The translations under genes were made by a program, and so were the position numbers. The notes under the pieces are model-generated. The model ran no database searches. It had not been told where the DNA came from and saw only the letters and a list, made by a program, of their open reading frames with translations. This document shows, piece after piece, positions 24,937 through 38,473 of a DNA stretch of 64,000 nucleotides. The DNA is from Polyangiales bacterium (GTDB taxonomy: Bacteria > Myxococcota_A > Polyangia > Polyangiales > Ga0077539): NCBI GenBank assembly GCA_044229975.1, contig JBGARZ010000011.1:224001-288000 (forward strand). The letters run 5' to 3'. The first letter of the stretch is position 1; each line of letters starts with the position of its first letter.

Positions 24937-24948
24937 TACCGGGCGAGG

Positions 24949-25189
24949 GCCGGGGTTCACGGTGCAGGCTTCGCGTCCGTCGCGCTCCGTTCACCCCGGG
25001 CAATGGTAGGGGGTCACCCCGCCGCTGCGCGACGGGGTTGCAACAGAGGCCGTGATCTTCACGGTGTCGATTGCAAGCGCGATGGATCCCAGAACTGCAA
25101 CCCCGTCGCGCAGCGGCGGGGTGACCCCCTACCATTGCCCGGGGTGAACGGAGCGCGACGGACGCGAAGCCTGCACCGTGAACCCCGGC
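24949..25189. repeat. Long inverted repeat (94-bp arms, 53-bp spacer) between convergent genes; MITE/REP-like or bidirectional terminator
   Basis: 24949-25042 is the reverse complement of 25096-25189. Confidence 0.9.
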
Positions 25190-25229
25190 GCGATTGGACA
25201 AACGAACTCGGGGCGAATCGGTATGACTC

Positions 25230-31118: not shown

Positions 31119-32102
31119 TCAGCGCGCGTTGGGGCCGACGGTGAGCGCGCGCGTCAGTCGGTCGATCCACGCCTCGACCGGCTCCAGTGGTTGGCCGCGG
31201 CGGCCCATCTCCAGCACGAAGTTGTCCCAGTCGATGGTGCCTTCGACGCGCGCCAGGTCGAGCCGTGCGACCACCTGCTTGAGGTTCGCGACGCCCGGGT
31301 CGACCCGCGACATGACCTCATCGAGCAGCGCCGCCGGGAGCGCGGTCGACTCGGCGAGGAGCACGGCGTCGTAGAGGTCCTTGCCTTGCGGGTACACGTC
31401 GGAGAGCAGCCAGAGGAGCTTCCACGCGAGCGACAGCGCCGGCGTCGCGCACAGAACCGTGACGGGCCGTGAGCCGGGCGGCTCGGTCGCGAGCGACACC
31501 CGCACGGGCGCCTCGGGCATCGGCTCTTCGAAGACGAAGTCCATCTGGACCTCGCCGTCGGGAACACCCTGCGCCGTCCACGGCATCACGAGGCGGTAGC
31601 CAGGGACGCGGTCGTAGGTCCAGAGCTTCGTGTAGAGCACGGCGCCCACGAACTCGATGCCCTCCCGCACCGCGCGCCCCTGACCGGAGAAGCGCTTCGT
31701 GAGGTCGCGGCGCAGGTCGGCCGCTTCGGTTCCGTCGAAGCGCCACCCTGCGGGCGCGACCCAGTCGAGGTCGCCCGGCTCGCGCGCGGCGTCGCCGTAC
31801 CACGCACGCATCACGCGGCTGCCGCGCAGCGCGAGAGACGAGCCCAGCGGGTGGGCGGTCACGGTCGTGAGCGCGTAGTCCATCGCGATGCGCCGCGCCG
31901 CGCGCCACGCGGCCTCGGCGTGGGGGTCGTCGAAGTCGGGGTCGCCGCGACGAAAGCCCGCAGCGTAGTGCCGCAGCGCGGGGTCGAAGATCTCGGCGCG
32001 CTTCGTCCCGTCGGGCGACGGCGGGTCGATGAAGGTGGGCGGGTACGAGGAGTTCCACGACGGCGAGCCCACCTTGCGACGGAGATCGTCCCATCAGCTC
32101 AT
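31119..32102 (-). CDS. AbiEii/AbiGii-like nucleotidyltransferase; in-frame TGA at codon 3 of the coupled start, alternative GTG at 32072
   Basis: LALRGS...AREPGDLDW nucleotidyltransferase motif, QMDFVF, LAWKL, QGKDLYD. Confidence 0.75.
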
Positions 32103-32707
32103 CGCCACCCCTCGTCCAGCGCCTCGTGGTCGTCCCACAGCACCGCCTCGTCGTGAACCTTCACCACCGTCACGTCACGGTGCCCGGCGAGCGCCCGGCC
32201 GAGGTCGTCCATCCAGGCGCGGTGCCGCGCTCCGGTCTCGTCGAAGGACCCACGATCGCGCCGCGTGAAGAACCGCTCGACGGCCCCGCCATCCGCCTCG
32301 CGCCGCACGCGGCGGGAGAGCCGGGCCCCGTGCCGATGGACCACCGCGCGCACGTCGTCGCCCGGCGCGTCGAACCAACCGCGCGGTCCGCGCAGCAACG
32401 CGTGCGACTCGCGGTAGAGGGCGCGCGAGTCGGCGCGCGACGGGCTCTCCACCTTCACGCGCAGGACGCGCACACCGTGCTCGGCAGCGAGCGCAACGAC
32501 TCGCGCGCGGAGCTCGGCGAGCTGGTGCTCGTCGTGGTCGACGGCGAAGGTCACCATCGATTGGAGGAGCGATGAGCGCGCGTCGCCGGTGGGGAGTTCG
32601 ATGGTGACGATCCTCGCCCGGAGCGCGTCGCGGAAGCGCTCGGTGGCGGCGGCGTCGTCGCGCTGGTCGATGGTCGCGTGCACCTCCAGCGGACGTCGGT
32701 GGGCCAT
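32099..32707 (-). CDS. Hypothetical protein, partner of the AbiEii-like gene
   Basis: EVHATI...RVKVE...YRESH...ERFFT...EAVLWD..LDEGW; ATGA overlap with the downstream gene. Confidence 0.72.
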   Translation of the reverse strand: MAHRRPLEVHATIDQRDDAAATERFRDALRARIVTIELPTGDARSSLLQSMVTFAVDHDEHQLAELRARVVALAAEHGVRVLRVKVESPSRADSRALYRESHALLRGPRGWFDAPGDDVRAVVHRHGARLSRRVRREADGGAVERFFTRRDRGSFDETGARHRAWMDDLGRALAGHRDVTVVKVHDEAVLWDDHEALDEGWR

Positions 32708-32907
32708 GCCGATCGCAGGCTCGCGCGGGGCGCAGCAGCGGTCAAACGGGCGGAGGGGGCACCCGGGGGGCGGTGCCGCGGGCGCTCGGCGGCTTGAGCA
32801 GGTGCGTGTGGGCGGGGCAGCGCGGGGCAGGACGGGGACGGGGCGCGGTGGAGTGGAGGAGTGGAGAGGAAAGGAGAGTAGGAGAGGCTGGCGAAGAGCG
32901 CCGAAAT

Positions 32908-33033
32908 GGGGTTATGGAATTGGGCAGCGAGCGGGCGAACAACGCGAACGGGGATATGGAACTGGGCAGCAAGCGGGCGAGCAGCGCCAGGGCGGGATTC
33001 GGTAATGGGGCGCGGGTGAATGAGATGTTGGGC
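32908..33033 (+). promoter_or_regulatory. Putative attI-like site: two 42-bp imperfect direct repeats followed by a GTTGGGC core
   Basis: Repeats at 32908-32949 and 32950-32991; GTTGGGC at 33027-33033 followed by the same leader as cassettes at 35354 and 35955, with no attC left arm upstream. Confidence 0.55.
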
Positions 33034-33134
33034 AGCTTCGGCGAGCGGCAGACCACGAGCTGCCAAGGCCAACCGCGCGAAGACTTGCATGGCTTGTTTC
33101 GGCGGCAGACCGCCCCACCGATAAGCGTTAATCG

Positions 33135-33638
33135 ATGAGAGTCGTCAGTCCTCTAATCTTCAGTCTTTGGCAACGAAGCGTAGGTCTTGCGCTGTGGATA
33201 TTATTGCTTGGGCTCACGGTTGGGATCGGCGCATTGCTGAAATGTTTTATAGACATTAGCTGGCTGGAGCTTGCCATGACAGGTGTCGCAGGTGGGCTTG
33301 GCTCCCTCGGCTACGTAGCGTGGGCCGCGAGTAACGATTGGAATGGCCTCGTTTGGAAGCCACGAAGAGCATGGCAGGTGTCATTCGATGGACTCAGTCT
33401 GAGTGTCCAATCGAGCTACCTGAAGACAAATATTCCCCTGAGGTGCATCCACTCCGCATGTGTCGTCTCGGATGGATCGTGGGAGACTCTGAGGGGAATA
33501 GAAGATGTGTGCTTGGTCCTGAAAGTTAAGGGTTCCTTGCAAATTAGCATCCCTGGCTCTTCCGACGGTTTTGATGGAACGCGGAGCGCACTTGGGGCCT
33601 TGATCGATGTGAGTTTCAGGGAACTGGGAACAGATTGA
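33135..33638 (+). CDS. Cassette 1: hypothetical membrane protein (2 TM + PH-like beta region)
   Basis: 167-aa ORF, AT-richer codons, ends 15 bp before attC. Confidence 0.75.
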   Translation: MRVVSPLIFSLWQRSVGLALWILLLGLTVGIGALLKCFIDISWLELAMTGVAGGLGSLGYVAWAASNDWNGLVWKPRRAWQVSFDGLSLSVQSSYLKTNIPLRCIHSACVVSDGSWETLRGIEDVCLVLKVKGSLQISIPGSSDGFDGTRSALGALIDVSFRELGTD

Positions 33639-33652
33639 TGTGCAGTGGTGCA

Positions 33653-33743
33653 GCCCAACAAGCCGATGGTGCCGACCGCCCCCGTTTCACCCGCCGCCAA
33701 CCCGTCGCGCCCGATGCGGCGGCACATCGGCCAGCCGTTGGGC
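33653..33743 (+). repeat. attC site 1 (91 bp)
   Basis: GCCCAAC aagcc gatggtgccgaccgc ... gcggcggcacatc ggccagcc GTTGGGC. Confidence 0.9.
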
Positions 33744-33836
33744 GGCCTCCACGCGGCAGTGCGTGGGTCACGGGCAGCGAGCGACGGGGCACGAACGGCG
33801 GTAAAGAAGATCGACGAGACCTCGGAGTGAAGTCGC

Positions 33837-34145
33837 GTGCGACGTGAGAACGGATCCCTGCGATGGTTGCGGCATCTCCCCGCTCTAGCGCTTGCGTGCC
33901 TGGCCGTTGCGAGCGTTGTATTGCTTCAACTATGGCCGAACATCCCGCGAACGAGGGGACAATGGGTCTTGCTTTGCGTGCTCGGTCCTCCACTCTACGT
34001 CTTGGCGGAGGCTCTCGCGGAGAGAATTTTCTCGGGAAAGGGCGGCAAGATTTCGCCAGAGGGGTTCCCTCTCAATCCCATCGCCGCAAGTGTAGCGGCG
34101 GCTCTGGCGATTTTCGCGGGCATATCATGGCTACTCGCCCAGTAG
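33837..34145 (+). CDS. Cassette 2: small 3-TM membrane protein
   Basis: 102-aa hydrophobic ORF ending just before attC. Confidence 0.7.
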   Translation: MRRENGSLRWLRHLPALALACLAVASVVLLQLWPNIPRTRGQWVLLCVLGPPLYVLAEALAERIFSGKGGKISPEGFPLNPIAASVAAALAIFAGISWLLAQ

Positions 34146-34149
34146 TAGC

Positions 34150-34240
34150 GCCCAACAAGCCAATGGTGCCGACCGCCTCTACTTCACCCGTCCCCACCCC
34201 GCCGTGCCCGCTGCGGCGGCACGTCGGCCAGCCGTTGGGC
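34150..34240 (+). repeat. attC site 2 (91 bp)
   Basis: GCCCAAC...GTTGGGC, same family as site 1. Confidence 0.9.
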
Positions 34241-34295
34241 AGACAGAGATGGCTCCGTGCCTACGCTCCGGACGCACCGCATCGAGGGGTAGAAG

Positions 34296-34724
34296 ATGAC
34301 TCTCGATGACCTCGCCCAAGACCTCCCCAACGGGTTCCATGATGCGGAGGTCTGCAAGCTCACGTTCGACATTGCCCACCGCGTGGCGACGATAGAACTG
34401 GACGTCTGGATTGGCAGTATGGAAGCGCCCCCGGAGTTTGGCCGAGAAACGTATCGTCCGGCGGAACTGAACCTCCACGGTGTCGCTTATCTGGTGATTG
34501 AGGCACCAGACCCGACCTATCGGTATGCGAAGACGGGGCCAGTCTGCGTAGACCTCTGCGAGCCCGCCGACTCGGGGCAACTGCCTCCGGCTCAAGCCGG
34601 TGAGTTCGCCGCGCGCTTCTTCGTGAGCGACTGGAACTCCTTCATCAGCGTTTCCGCGAGAGACGCCGCACTTCGTTGGACCGGTGAGCCCTACGAGGCG
34701 GGGTGGAGAGGAGTCGACGAGTGA
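34296..34724 (+). CDS. Cassette 3: hypothetical acidic protein (LPNGFHDA motif)
   Basis: RBS gagggg; 142 aa; ends before an attC-like site. Confidence 0.8.
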   Translation: MTLDDLAQDLPNGFHDAEVCKLTFDIAHRVATIELDVWIGSMEAPPEFGRETYRPAELNLHGVAYLVIEAPDPTYRYAKTGPVCVDLCEPADSGQLPPAQAGEFAARFFVSDWNSFISVSARDAALRWTGEPYEAGWRGVDE

Positions 34725-34729
34725 GTGCC

Positions 34730-34780
34730 ACCCAGCAAGCCATTGCTGATGACGGGCCGCTGAACGGCAGGCCGTTTGAC
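34730..34780 (+). repeat. Short degenerate attC-like site of a different family (51 bp)
   Basis: ACCCAGC aagcc attgctgatgacgggccgctgaac ggcaggcc GTTTGAC lying exactly between two cassette ORFs. Confidence 0.5.
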
Positions 34781-34784
34781 CGCG

Positions 34785-35132
34785 ATGCAACGTGACGAAA
34801 TGCTCGCCGATGTTCTCTCGGAGATCACCCAGCGCCTCGGCGGGTCGGTCACAGGTCGGATTCGCGCAGATGCGCTTGTCTTGGTCTGCGAAGCGAACGG
34901 CGCAACCATCAGTATCACTGTGGACGCTGCAAGTCGTCGCTCGTTCTGCGTCACCTATCCTGGCTTCCGTCCAGAGGCCGCGTCTTGGAAAGACCGACAA
35001 GAACTTGTCGCCCAGAATGTTCTGCTGCCCGGCGTGCTGTGGATCGTTCGCGCGGTCGAGAAGGATGGCGCTGTCCTGCCAGAGTTTCCCAGACCAGGCC
35101 TTTGCAAGTGTGCGAATCGGACGCCTTCGTAG
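34785..35132 (+). CDS. Cassette 4: hypothetical protein
   Basis: ATG 5 bp after GTTTGAC; about 115 aa. Confidence 0.55.
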   Translation: MQRDEMLADVLSEITQRLGGSVTGRIRADALVLVCEANGATISITVDAASRRSFCVTYPGFRPEAASWKDRQELVAQNVLLPGVLWIVRAVEKDGAVLPEFPRPGLCKCANRTPS

Positions 35133-35269
35133 TAGTCACCCCGCGTATGGGTGGCTGAGGGATGCGACGTGACAACGGCTAGAATCACATGCGAGACGAG
35201 GAGTGCCGGCAAAGTCAGGCTTTCGGGTGAGCCCTCAGTGACCACACCCACTTCTTCGATGATGGGCGT

Positions 35270-35360
35270 GCCCAAACAGCCGATGCTGCCGACCGGCCAC
35301 GCCTCACCCGCTCGCAACCCGTCGCATCCGCTGCGGCGGCACATCGGCCAGTCGTTAGGC
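35270..35360 (+). repeat. attC site (91 bp, altered left core GCCCAAA)
   Basis: gcccaaacagccgatgctgccgaccg...gcggcggcacatcggccagtc GTTAGGC. Confidence 0.85.
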
Positions 35361-35452
35361 GGCTTCAGCGAGACGATCAGGCAGCAGGAGTTGTGCGCGA
35401 ACGACGAAAGAGCGAGTAGCGGCCAAGCCACTACGTGATGAGAGACTGAAAG

Positions 35453-35824
35453 ATGACGGCGCGAGGCAGTGGACCACTGGCCATAGGATGTGCAGCCCTC
35501 GCGATGATCTCAGCGTGCGGCGCTGGCGACTCGTTCTTTATCCTTGAGGCGCGTGTGACCTCTTGCCGCTCCGGTGCTCCCGTAAACGGGGCGAGGGCGG
35601 TCCTGAGGTTGGACAGAGGTTATGGCGAACCCGATCTAGCCGTTCAGGTCGACGTGAACGGACGACTCCATATGGCGATCAACGAGCCAGCATCGGCATG
35701 GGCCACGCTTACGGTCGAAGCTTCCAACCACAAACGGTGGACACACCAGTTTCGAGGTCGACCTCGTCCTGGAGTTGCCATCTGCCTTGAACCTCAGGAC
35801 AATCGTCCTGCGAGTACACCTTGA
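35453..35824 (+). CDS. Cassette 5: lipoprotein with small beta-sandwich domain
   Basis: Lipobox ISAC; 123 aa; flanked by attC sites. Confidence 0.75.
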   Translation: MTARGSGPLAIGCAALAMISACGAGDSFFILEARVTSCRSGAPVNGARAVLRLDRGYGEPDLAVQVDVNGRLHMAINEPASAWATLTVEASNHKRWTHQFRGRPRPGVAICLEPQDNRPASTP

Positions 35825-35870
35825 GTGAGCCGGGCGACTATCGCGTGCCGAATCAGATTCGCGGGACACG

Positions 35871-35961
35871 GCCCAACAAGCCGATGGTGCCGACCGCCCC
35901 CGCTTCACCCGCCGCCAACCCGTCGCGCCCGATGCGGCGGCGCAGCGGCCAGTCGTTGGGC
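35871..35961 (+). repeat. attC site (91 bp)
   Basis: GCCCAAC...GTTGGGC. Confidence 0.9.
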
Positions 35962-36029
35962 AGCCTCGGCGAGAGGCGTTTTGGCCGAGCGAACTCGCGA
36001 CCCCGCGTGAGGAGGAGTAGAACCAACCC

Positions 36030-36281
36030 ATGAACGACGTTGAACATGTCTTGGCTGCTGCGCTGCAACTGCCGGCCACCGAGCGCGCGGCGGTCGTCGC
36101 TGAATTACTCGACAGTCTCGACGATCTCGGGCCGGCCGACGAGGGGGTCGAACGGGCGTGGGCTGAGGAAGCCCAGAGACGGCTAGCGGAGGTGGACTCG
36201 GGGGCGGTGACGCCAATCCCGTGGGCCGAGGCCCGGCGCCGCATTCTCGCCGCGGCGAACGGTCGACGTGAAACCCCTTGA
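36030..36281 (+). CDS. Cassette 6: addiction module antitoxin (TIGR02574-like)
   Basis: ALQLPATERA...LLDSLD...AWAEEAQRRLAEVDSG.V..IPW; RBS gaggagg. Confidence 0.88.
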   Translation: MNDVEHVLAAALQLPATERAAVVAELLDSLDDLGPADEGVERAWAEEAQRRLAEVDSGAVTPIPWAEARRRILAAANGRRETP

Positions 36282-36555
36282 GCTACACCCGCGCGCCCTC
36301 GTTGAAAGCGAGGACGCCGCGGCATGGTATGCGGAACGCGATCCGCGAGTGGCGGCGCGTTTTGTTGAAGAACTCGACGTGACTCTTGGGCTCATCGTCG
36401 AGGCGCCAAATCGCTGACCAATCTATCTCGATGTCCGCCGGGCTCTCCTCTCCAAGTTTCCGTATGCCGTTCTCTACCGTGATGAGCCGACACGCATCCT
36501 CGTGGTAGCCATTGCTCACGCCAAGCGACAACCGGGGTACTGGCAGGGTAGGTGA
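36268..36555 (+). pseudogene. Cassette 6: RelE/ParE-family toxin with internal nonsense codon (TGA 36415-36417)
   Basis: MKPLELHPRA...WYAERDP...APNR*PIYLDVRRALLSKFPYAVLYR...VVAIAHAKRQPGYW. Confidence 0.88.
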
Positions 36556-36561
36556 CGGCGT

Positions 36562-36652
36562 GCCCAACAAGCCGATGGTGCCGACCGCCCCCACCTCACC
36601 CGCCGTCAACCCATCGCGCCCGCTGCGGCGGCCCATCGGCCAGTCGTTCGGC
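36562..36652 (+). repeat. attC site (91 bp, right core GTTCGGC)
   Basis: GCCCAAC...GTTCGGC. Confidence 0.88.
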
Positions 36653-36725
36653 GGGGCGCGGGCGGCGTGCTAGGACGCACACCATGCTGCTGACCCCTCA
36701 CCTCTCAATCATGAGGAGACGTACA

Positions 36726-37259
36726 ATGCCAAATACAGGCGCAGACCTTTCTGCTGTAGAGGGGGTCGTATCCTCCAGGGTCCTCGACGCCATGCGCACC
36801 GCTTCGGACGAGTTGTCCCGCCTCGGCGTGCGGCATGCGCTAGTGGGCGGCCTCGCCGTTGGCGCGCATGGCTACCCGCGCGCCACGAAGGACGTCGACT
36901 TTCTCGTGGGTGATGAGGCCTTCGAGCATCACGGAGGTGGGATCGTCACGATGAAGCCAGGCATTCCGATCCAGATCAACGGGGTTTTGGTCGATCTGCT
37001 CTCGGCACAGCCAGATGAAGGTGCGCTTGGTGCTGTGCCTGTCGTCCGGAATGGCGTCGACGTCCCTATCGCACCAATCGAGGCGCTGGTTTATCTCAAG
37101 TTGAAGTCGCCGCGCCTCAAAGACGCCGCTGACATCATTGAGTTGCTCAAGGTCGGCATTGACCATACGCGTTGCCGCGCGTGGCTCACAACGAACGCGC
37201 CAATGCTGGTACCTCAGTTCGAAGAATTGATCGAGCGCGCCCAGCGAGAAAGCGAATAG
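36726..37259 (+). CDS. Cassette 7: nucleotidyltransferase-fold protein
   Basis: LVGGLAV..HGYPRATKDVD...LKL...R.KDAAD; RBS gaggag. Confidence 0.82.
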   Translation: MPNTGADLSAVEGVVSSRVLDAMRTASDELSRLGVRHALVGGLAVGAHGYPRATKDVDFLVGDEAFEHHGGGIVTMKPGIPIQINGVLVDLLSAQPDEGALGAVPVVRNGVDVPIAPIEALVYLKLKSPRLKDAADIIELLKVGIDHTRCRAWLTTNAPMLVPQFEELIERAQRESE

Positions 37260-37342
37260 GCAATGGGGGACAACGGACACTCCGCGCGGGATCATGGGCA
37301 GGTCGCGACAAGCCAAGTTCATTGATAGTACACCGCATGGGA

Positions 37343-37430
37343 GCAGAACAAGCCGATGGTGCCGCCCGCTCCCACCACACCCGCCAACCCGCTTCACCCA
37401 ATGCGGCGGAACATCGGCCAGCCGTTGGAT
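37343..37430 (+). repeat. attC site (88 bp)
   Basis: GCAGAAC aagccgatggtgccg...gcggcggaacatcggccagcc GTTGGAT. Confidence 0.85.
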
Positions 37431-37461
37431 TGCCCCGGCGCATGCCCGGAGGACTGGTCTT

Positions 37462-37950
37462 GTGGCTCCTGAACACGCGGAGTTCATCGTCACGCCGCGG
37501 TCGTTCGACCGTTCAGGCCCCAACGCGGTCACCGGTCCGATCTGGCTCCGACGCAGCGCCCGCGACGGGGCGCATGCGGACTTCCCCTATACCGGCTGGA
37601 CGGACTTTCCAATCCGCATTCTCGCGGCTTGGTTGACTGGCCTGGCCGTCCTCGCGAGCGGTGAGGTCAGCGAGTCCATGTGCCACTTCGCGGATGGCCC
37701 GTTCATGCTCGCTGTGGCCGACGCGGGGAATACGCTGCTGCGCGTACGCTGCGTCGAACACCATGCCGACAGCGACCCGCTCGTGGTCGGTGACTTCTTT
37801 ACGCCCGCCAGAGTGCTTTACGGGAGCCTTCGTGCCGCGGCGGTGGCCGCGCTGGCTGAGTGCGACCGGCGTGGCTGGTCGAACGATGACGTTGACGAGC
37901 TCAGAGACGTGCTGGTCTCTTGTAACGATGCCCGCAGTCGAGTCCCGTAG
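37462..37950 (+). CDS. Cassette 8: hypothetical protein, possibly immunity-protein-like; no downstream attC seen
   Basis: RBS ggagga + GTG; VTGPIWL...FP..GWTDFP..IL.AW...F.DGPF. Confidence 0.7.
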   Translation: MAPEHAEFIVTPRSFDRSGPNAVTGPIWLRRSARDGAHADFPYTGWTDFPIRILAAWLTGLAVLASGEVSESMCHFADGPFMLAVADAGNTLLRVRCVEHHADSDPLVVGDFFTPARVLYGSLRAAAVAALAECDRRGWSNDDVDELRDVLVSCNDARSRVP

Positions 37951-38113
37951 CCCTACGAGACCCGATGAGTTGTTCGGACGGGGACTGCGAGCCTGACCGT
38001 TGCGCACCGCGCCGACGCTGCGGTGGGGGCCCGGCAACCGCGGGCCGGACCGTCGCGCGCCCGATGTCCATCACCGATAGCCCGACTGGTGTTCTAGAAC
38101 ACCCGCGGCGACG

Positions 38114-38473
38114 TCAGGCCGGCGGATCAGCCTTCTTGCGCGGCCAGAAGACCATCGCGAGCACCGCGCCCCACACGACAAGCGCCGACCCGTACACGAT
38201 GCCGAAGCTCTTCGGGTAGACGTTGCCCCCGAGGTCGTGGCCGCCCGCGTCGACGCAGAACGCCTCGTCGGCCTCATGCGTACGGCCGCCCGAGTACGTC
38301 CGGTAGGAGTGGAAGCGCATATGATGGCTGCCCTCCGGGCACACCAGCGTCTTCGTAAACCCGATGCCGCCCGGCGCCACGTGCGTGACGCAGCTCGTGA
38401 ACATCGCTGGGATGATCAACAGCGCCACCAGTCCCGCCGCGATGAGGTTGCCCTTCGAGATCTGTATGCCCAC
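38114..38473 (-). CDS. Small 2-TM hypothetical protein
   Basis: GTG start with upstream aaggga; TM - LVCPEG loop - TM. Confidence 0.6.
   Translation of the reverse strand: MGIQISKGNLIAAGLVALLIIPAMFTSCVTHVAPGGIGFTKTLVCPEGSHHMRFHSYRTYSGGRTHEADEAFCVDAGGHDLGGNVYPKSFGIVYGSALVVWGAVLAMVFWPRKKADPPA

Follow-up and report, generated by a model that had tools for sequence, protein, structure and literature searches.

How can a row of gene cassettes stand on a chromosome with no integrase beside it, and can it still gain cassettes? The question is raised by a cluster of attC-like repeats in the 64 kb stretch of DNA analysed here (the window), G000:C2:224001-288000, where G000 is the genome under study, a 39-contig draft from a Polyangiales bacterium; other G numbers denote relatives and comparison genomes, C numbers contigs and L numbers loci. 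The locus is an integron array with a conserved attI-like head. Its integrase gene (intI) has probably been deleted, and the integrase (IntI) encoded on contig C4 likely still acts on its attI in trans. Conservation of this insertion site in the window and at seven or more other integrase-less places suggests that one distant integrase likely serves many scattered capture points.

The attC family

A preliminary description of this DNA, made from the window alone, listed six imperfect palindromes of 88–91 bp, and all are present where it placed them (Table 1). They measure 91 bp, apart from one of 88 bp, and have pairwise identities of 76–96% (mean 84%). Their left cores resemble RYYYAAC and their right cores GTTRRRY, as described, with three of the six departing from the patterns. 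Each of the six is preceded by a co-oriented open reading frame (ORF) that stops about 5–140 bp before it; the ORFs' GC content of 0.53–0.66, against 0.71 for the whole window, bears out their description as AT-richer. A seventh, internally shortened attC had been overlooked, as had the attI-like head, a stop in the toxin gene and a last ORF that lacks an attC and runs into a repeat resembling repetitive extragenic palindromic (REP) elements. With the seventh site, the array is counted as eight cassette units.

A hidden Markov model (HMM) built from the six window attC finds 43 family attC in G000 (E<0.1), in 10 one-strand clusters, with 40 of the 43 in clusters of three or more. The array, earlier taken for a single orphan, belongs to a set of about ten. 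The proposal of a lineage-specific attC family holds, as matches occur in 19 of 24 other genomes of the host family versus 2 of 16 outside it. A generic attC scan of G000 under strict settings, which is of low sensitivity, gives 23 matches (19 of this family and four lone) and no array of a second family.

Folded singly, the six window sites give weak signals (bottom-strand z −2.9 to +0.85 against shuffles). Across 35 of the 43 copies (partial copies and a few full ones excluded), the named attC stem is paired at 95.6%, versus 19–51% in slid controls, and the bottom strand is more stable than the top in 35 of 35. The bottom-strand hairpin comprises an R stem, an unpaired central spacer and an L stem; on the R''-L'' arm of the hairpin two bases are extrahelical, C and T instead of G and T, and spacers are 5 and 8 nt. 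An extrahelical C is accepted in Vibrio cholerae repeat (VCR) sites (PMC2727003), and attC lengths of 55–141 bp and spacers of up to 10 nt are permitted (PMC7370490; papers are cited here and below for the portions of their text that were accessible). Family members fall within this length range and carry the R'' RYYYAAC and R' GTTRRRY cores, some copies departing in one core.

The attC and cassette architecture proposed earlier is therefore upheld by the stem, the strand preference and the shuffling signature given below: the units of co-oriented ORF and attC are chimeric after shuffling. That the locus is an integron cassette array can hardly be doubted. It also fits the definition of a CALIN, an attC cluster without an integron-integrase, with at least two attC and no nearby intI. 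A complete integron, in which intI adjoins the array, is absent from the window locus; an AbiEi/AbiEii operon stands there instead (window 31119-32707, minus strand; PADLOC E 2e-25 and 2e-95). It lies on the opposite strand, divergent from the attI-like site, and begins 320 bp before the crossover, in the usual place of intI.

attI-like heads and the decay of intI

The head of the window array contains two direct repeats of about 42 bp (32905-32945 and 32947-32987) and a partial third from about 32990. These are followed by the core TGAGAT (33021-33026) and by GTTGGGC from 33027, with the crossover G/TT at 33027/33028. The C4 locus has the same core and repeat unit: three direct repeats, TGAGAT and GTTAGGT stand between intI and the first cassette. 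Heads of this type are also found on the arrays of C14, C19, C20, C23 and C28 and at a site at the end of C2, and a degenerate one on C39, giving nine heads in G000, at least seven of them integrase-less besides that of the window. Over 156 nt the window head shares 92% identity with that of C20, and over 130 nt it shares 95% with that of C23. Eight of the 10 attC clusters lie on a contig that also bears a head. Of the two headless clusters, one at the start of C23 likely continues the head at the end of C2 through a collapsed repeat, as we infer from shared cassette sequence; the other, on C8, lies downstream of transposase-like genes.

A strict attI pattern matched in only 2 of 61 genomes and a looser one matched at control level outside the family; the strict pattern was replaced by a profile trained on 19 such sites, which it matches of necessity, and applied to only 145 candidates in each genome. 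In G000 the profile gives 17 matches, all within the nine heads and none away from arrays, and it matches 17 of 30 other family genomes. Merging of sub-repeat matches leaves 49 distinct sites in relatives, with sequence retrieved for every one; at 38 of them an attC of the family lies downstream within 4 kb, always on the same strand. Repeat units measure 31–42 bp and occur in 2–5 copies, and the exact core is retained at most sites. As befits an attI, the motif adjoins intI divergently at G000:C4, G014:C22, G021:C47, G002:C5 and others. On these sequence features the head of the window array is very probably an attI and a predicted IntI target.

No match to a consensus of sigma-70 type, which may not be that of the host, and no cassette promoter (Pc) were identified upstream of cassette 1. 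A promoter-like TTGAC-N17/19-TAGCT or TACGCT motif faces several integrase-less heads elsewhere (L041, L042, L038 (300–420 bp upstream), L219 and Sorangium L168, L171, L173 and L174), and is absent at the window head. Deletion of intI could place such a motif beside attI.

The one intact IntI of G000 (C4:248120-249070, 316 aa) is divergent from an array of six attC. It scores 414.8 bits with TIGR02249 (cut-off 265) and has the RKHRHY motifs, the IntI-specific insertion and an intact frame. Its nearest named relatives are Polyangiales proteins (71–85% identity), in keeping with the myxobacterium-like host suggested at the outset. A tyrosine recombinase on C19 was rejected as an IntI, scoring 201 bits, below the cut-off, and adjoining an IS91 transposase. 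The reported lack of a tyrosine recombinase in the window extends to the whole of contig C2, which has no PF00589 or TIGR02249 match. Neither tblastn nor a DNA HMM built from 14 intI genes (15-bit threshold) finds an intI trace in the window, and the head has only a weak, G-rich likeness to intI (p ~0.05–0.07, not significant).

Elsewhere, remnants are preserved. Antisense intI fragments abut the C20 head (44 bits) and the C28 head (72 bits). Amongst 58 sites in 18 family genomes, nine have a full-length intI upstream (two of these frameshifted or degenerate, and one separated from the core by an inserted element), 17 a short remnant and 32 none (four of the 32 with less than 400 bases of upstream contig). 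All 26 genes or remnants are upstream and antisense, none sense, and the best of 200 random control windows scores 3.4 bits. In 15 of the 17 the remnant spans only 76–258 nt, likely below the 50% profile cover applied by Cury et al., in whose data 15 of 279 CALINs have a pseudogene (PMC4889954). G011 has an intact-intI platform together with a copy that has a 97% identical flank and an internally deleted intI. The pattern recurs in the closed chromosome of Sorangium sp. So ce1014 (G043, L095), where an attI motif of its own is present eight times (control 0) and intI varies from a full-length gene to none at all. In two further closed Sorangium genomes this motif is present once and three times. 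In G002 (L247, C5:37900-44500), an inserted element of about 1.2 kb parts the attI repeats, which are of the window's subtype, from an intact intI.

Cassette insertion and its explanation

A cassette entering as a circle brings its own R' letters to its front. In first cassettes, the core of the head fits the R'' of the first attC better than does that attC's own R' (14 versus 2 of 20 sites), also where a full intI is lacking (10 versus 2 of 16), and internal cassettes behave alike (17 versus 3 of 32). None of 5000 shuffles is as good for any of the three sets; the test is limited to arrays with an attC fitting a regular expression within 2.6 kb. The first cassette of the window matches R'' at four of four letters, tied with its own R'. 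Since the head core matches the attC end of the first cassette, the head is a true insertion point, with the attI attribute of a G/TT crossover that took in a first cassette. The test demonstrates insertion of integrase type and gives no date.

Cassettes are also shared between arrays. The toxin–antitoxin (TA) cassette of the window recurs in the C23 array (94%) with exact cassette limits, between attC sites. G000 has three more cases, the C20 array sharing with both C23 arrays and the C19 array with one, besides one short, partial match. Relatives have window cassettes 3, 6 and 7 in other arrays, among them complete integrons and, in first position, one integrase-less head. Invariant gene order, which the preliminary description named as a pattern that would speak against an integron, was not seen: the loci have no conserved order in the congeners searched. 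In four DNA sequencing runs, low-depth contig fragments only were found, some near-identical to cassettes, with no joint at an attC; this bears on excision neither way.

Homologous integrase-less platforms bear on the timing. The platforms at G004:C134 and G002:C151 are 86% identical over 941 nt up to attI and have unrelated first cassettes. Homologous integrase-less pairs within G001, G002 and G020 (0.6–2.5 kb up to attI) likewise carry unrelated first cassettes, and the G020 pair shares the same intI remnant. The most economical reading of these differences is cassette gain in trans, after loss of intI. Integron platforms would have multiplied in the genome, several then losing intI and keeping attI, and the window locus would formerly have held an intI of its own. 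The C4 IntI would bind the repeats and core of the heads and cut at G/TT, taking up folded bottom-strand attC circles, whichever array they were excised from, and inserting them at any of the nine sites, a process that may be ongoing. Mobilisation in trans and orphaning by loss of intI, offered earlier as alternatives, look like two halves of one history: both have likely taken place, the action in trans being what we infer.

Several points weigh against this history. No intI remnant is found by the DNA HMM at the window head or at five other heads of G000. The C20 and C28 remnants show 67–78% identity to intact intI, no more to the C4 gene than to those of other species, and hence are no recent copies of the C4 gene. 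In repeat subtype the window head lies far from the C4 site (ranked 37 of 58), and recognition of attI is reported to be restricted to the cognate integrase (PMC2095811). The attI model, trained on 19 of these sites, misses those of G019 and G023, both of which have intI. Palindromy of the repeat unit (70.7% paired) is not significant, being equalled by 16–57 of 500 shuffles and 203 of 2000. The insertions may predate loss of intI, and shared cassettes in G000 are mostly 91–97% alike, hence old. Platform pairs inside one draft genome may be co-binned strain alleles. Finally, the one element that is 100% identical in first position at two heads carries its own recombinase.

That element is a unit of about 2.7 kb, with a XerD-like tyrosine recombinase and an IS91-family transposase, ending in its own 111 bp attC-like hairpin. 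It takes first position, as a cassette, at four attI-like heads distributed over two genomes (G000:C19:433340-436054, minus strand, L042; the end of G000:C2; and L218 and L216 of G001); the G000 copies do not differ across the 140 bases seen, and identity in G001 is 89%. It is likely a selfish cassette or an attI-targeting element, and no paper on it was found in the literature search. At G002:C151:~96403 (L245), letters matching the attC end of this element replace the head core, possibly a scar of imprecise excision. G019 (contigs C3, C24, C29, C23 and C35), one of the two genomes missed by the attI model, has three intI matches above the cut-off plus fragments.

Some of the points against ongoing gain would also suit a frozen relic, in which intI was lost, attI is passive or kept for transcription signals, and no cassette entered later; sharing would then stem from exchange that preceded the loss, from several horizontal gains or from near-identical attC undergoing homologous recombination. 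The decay in the window (degenerate attC, toxin stop, last cassette without attC), the divergent attI subtype and the 91–97% likeness of shared cassettes are as expected of a relic. Preservation of the exact core at most sites is not, nor are the differing first cassettes on homologous integrase-less platforms, nor three unlinked heads that remain 92–95% alike despite unrelated flanks and first cassettes. A relic is unlikely.

The likeness of those three heads (window, C20 and C23) is confined to the repeats and core (128–156 nt), with no common flank, and this leaves room for copying of the site alone. A mobile or convertible attI module of about 130–150 bp, copied by gene conversion or as an IntI-made circle, could have seeded a locus that never had intI, the array then growing in trans; the 32 of 58 sites without intI trace would accord with this. 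However, the 17 sites with remnants and varied deletion points form a simple decay series, other platform pairs have 0.6–2.5 kb of common flank, neither a target duplication nor a shared left border was seen, and attI1 failed to insert into genomes in the accessible part of Loot et al. (10.1101/2022.09.11.507474). Such a module is distinctly improbable as the origin of the window locus.

Loss of intI with continued use of attI thus remains the preferred reading, and two further explanations carry little weight beside it. Seeding of a CALIN at a secondary attG site (GWT) and severance by an insertion sequence that parted the array from the C4 integron are both described routes (PMC4889954; 10.1101/2022.09.11.507474), and the headless C8 cluster, after transposase-like genes, would suit them. 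However, attG is a 3-base consensus, whereas the window head is about 150 bp, is homologous to a site flanking intI and has the array starting exactly at that site's crossover; this conserved head makes either origin very improbable here. The 39-contig draft does hold other repeat families, but REP-like elements or an assembly artefact can be set aside as practically negligible: the copies are neither scattered singly, as the preliminary description would have expected of REPs, nor placed in both orientations between housekeeping genes like REPs or bacterial interspersed mosaic elements, but grouped in one-strand clusters, the fold, core-match and shuffling results refute REP identity, the locus is mid-contig, and the multi-site pattern recurs in a closed genome.

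Relation to known integrons

The array itself is of a known kind, an ordinary CALIN; the retained and multiplied attI, with its series of decaying intI, is new. Like CALINs in the accessible text of PMC4889954 and PMC9024848, it has at least two attC, no intI nearby, about six cassettes of mostly unknown genes and an IntI elsewhere, as do half of CALINs. CALINs are defined there without attI, which is undetected or unknown outside classes 1–3, and 95% lack a recognisable intI pseudogene. Here, in contrast, most arrays have an attI and many have an adjacent intI remnant, usually of the short kind. Cury et al. give loss of intI as one CALIN route and attI as not searchable (PMC4889954), Neron et al. 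call attI poorly described (PMC9024848), and Loot et al. add attG seeding (10.1101/2022.09.11.507474).

The homogeneous lineage attC, TA cassette, chromosomal location and, at the complete locus, intI divergent from attI recall the sedentary chromosomal integrons of Vibrio and Xanthomonas type. Unlike their single long array, the 43 attC here are spread over 10 short clusters with nine heads and no conserved gene order in the congeners searched; the window locus works like a satellite of such an integron. Xanthomonas CALINs at secondary loci also lie away from an intI locus that is kept, with mobilisation in trans proposed, and in the accessible portion of that report no attI or intI remnant is described for them (10.1101/2025.06.18.660453). 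Insertions at attG and single attC sites lacking integron-integrases (SALINs) also place cassettes outside the main platform, but at a 3-base target and not at a repeat-bearing conserved site (10.1101/2022.09.11.507474). The attI1 of class 1 integrons shares the G/TT crossover beside intI and upstream direct repeats (DR1 and DR2, in the sources accessible); as far as seen without alignment, its sequence is unrelated to that of these heads, which also differ in their repeat units. The accessible parts of PMC13616975 and 10.1101/2022.02.06.479319 hold nothing further on attI-headed integrase-less arrays. No report of multiple integrase-less attI sites per genome or of Polyangiales integrons was found in a search that excluded subscription journals; supplements to PMC4889954 may list myxobacterial CALINs.

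Tentatively, the Polyangiales may possess a distributed integron, with one integrase and a network of up to about nine free-standing attI sites, each live and with its own array, that exchange cassettes of one attC family. Many CALINs might be such satellites, and the attI module may spread without intI. If so, the attI of many CALINs would have gone unseen because its sequence was unknown. If the satellites are live, several cassettes would hold first position at once and gene capture would persist even though most integrase genes were lost. CALINs and complete integrons are about equally common, and the origin and continued cassette gain of CALINs are open questions (PMC4889954; PMC9024848), largely because attI is known only for a few clinical classes. 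A defined attI motif, an intI decay series and one cognate integrase in a single lineage open the question to direct experiment.

Cassette contents and neighbouring features

The cargo of the window array (Table 1) consists of one TA cassette, one likely nucleotidyltransferase-fold protein and six unnamed proteins. The cassette 7 protein has 2355 homologues, those listed being nearly all unnamed or hypothetical. PADLOC gave no match to the window cassette ORFs and PHROGs one weak match only.

Table 1. Features of the cassette array (window coordinates)
Feature	Position	Strand	Basis or remark
attI-like site	32881..33033	+	repeats, core, crossover; homology to other heads; core complementary to first attC R''
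Cassette 1 ORF, 167 aa, N-terminal half hydrophobic	33135..33638	+	no family above cut-off
attC 1 (91 bp)	33653..33743	+	family HMM, fold, repeat alignment
Cassette 2 ORF, 102 aa, likely membrane protein	33837..34145	+	weak PHROG match, E 0.0065
attC 2 (91 bp)	34150..34240	+	family HMM, repeat alignment
Cassette 3 ORF, 142 aa	34296..34724	+	Atlas look-alikes unnamed; DUF6258/Imm50 leads only; 85% copy in G001 array
Degenerate, internally shortened attC (51 bp)	34730..34780	+	match of G001 copy of cassette 3 stops here
Cassette 4 ORF, 115 aa, no identified family	34785..35132	+	family searches
attC (91 bp; left core GCCCAAA)	35270..35360	+	family HMM, repeat alignment
Cassette 5 ORF, 123 aa	35453..35824	+	weak DUF6276 match below cut-off
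attC (91 bp) after cassette 5	35871..35961	+	family HMM, repeat alignment
Cassette 6 antitoxin, PF09720	36030..36281	+	E 1e-16
Cassette 6 ParE/RelE-like toxin gene, in-frame stop 36415-36417	36268..36555	+	C23-array copy (94% identical) uninterrupted
attC (91 bp) after cassette 6	36562..36652	+	family HMM, repeat alignment
Cassette 7 ORF, 177 aa, likely nucleotidyltransferase fold	36726..37259	+	N-terminal 42 aa vs PDB 8an4, E 3e-4
attC (88 bp), most diverged copy	37343..37430	+	family HMM, fold, repeat alignment
Last cassette ORF, 162 aa, without following attC	37462..37950	+	unnamed protein
REP-like repeat (~35 places in genome), end of array, outside integron	37930..38115		genome repeat search

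The AbiEi flank was sought in eight congeners for an empty site and not found, and matches to other flanking DNA in congeners are scattered single genes, so the insertion borders of the array could not be set. Within the window, positions 24947-25190 form a near-perfect palindrome of about 245 bp, present at about 23 places in G000 with almost no match in congeners; it resembles a miniature inverted-repeat transposable element or a REP. Amongst the other arrays of G000, the start of C23 (L044:1-1110) has two tandem copies of one cassette, which is present again in the C19 array, at 97–99%. L041, L042 and L045 contain large low-GC cassettes encoding proteins of up to 784 aa, among them, by motif, a putative HNH-like, a putative ATPase-like and a putative GmrSD-like one; these may be defence genes.

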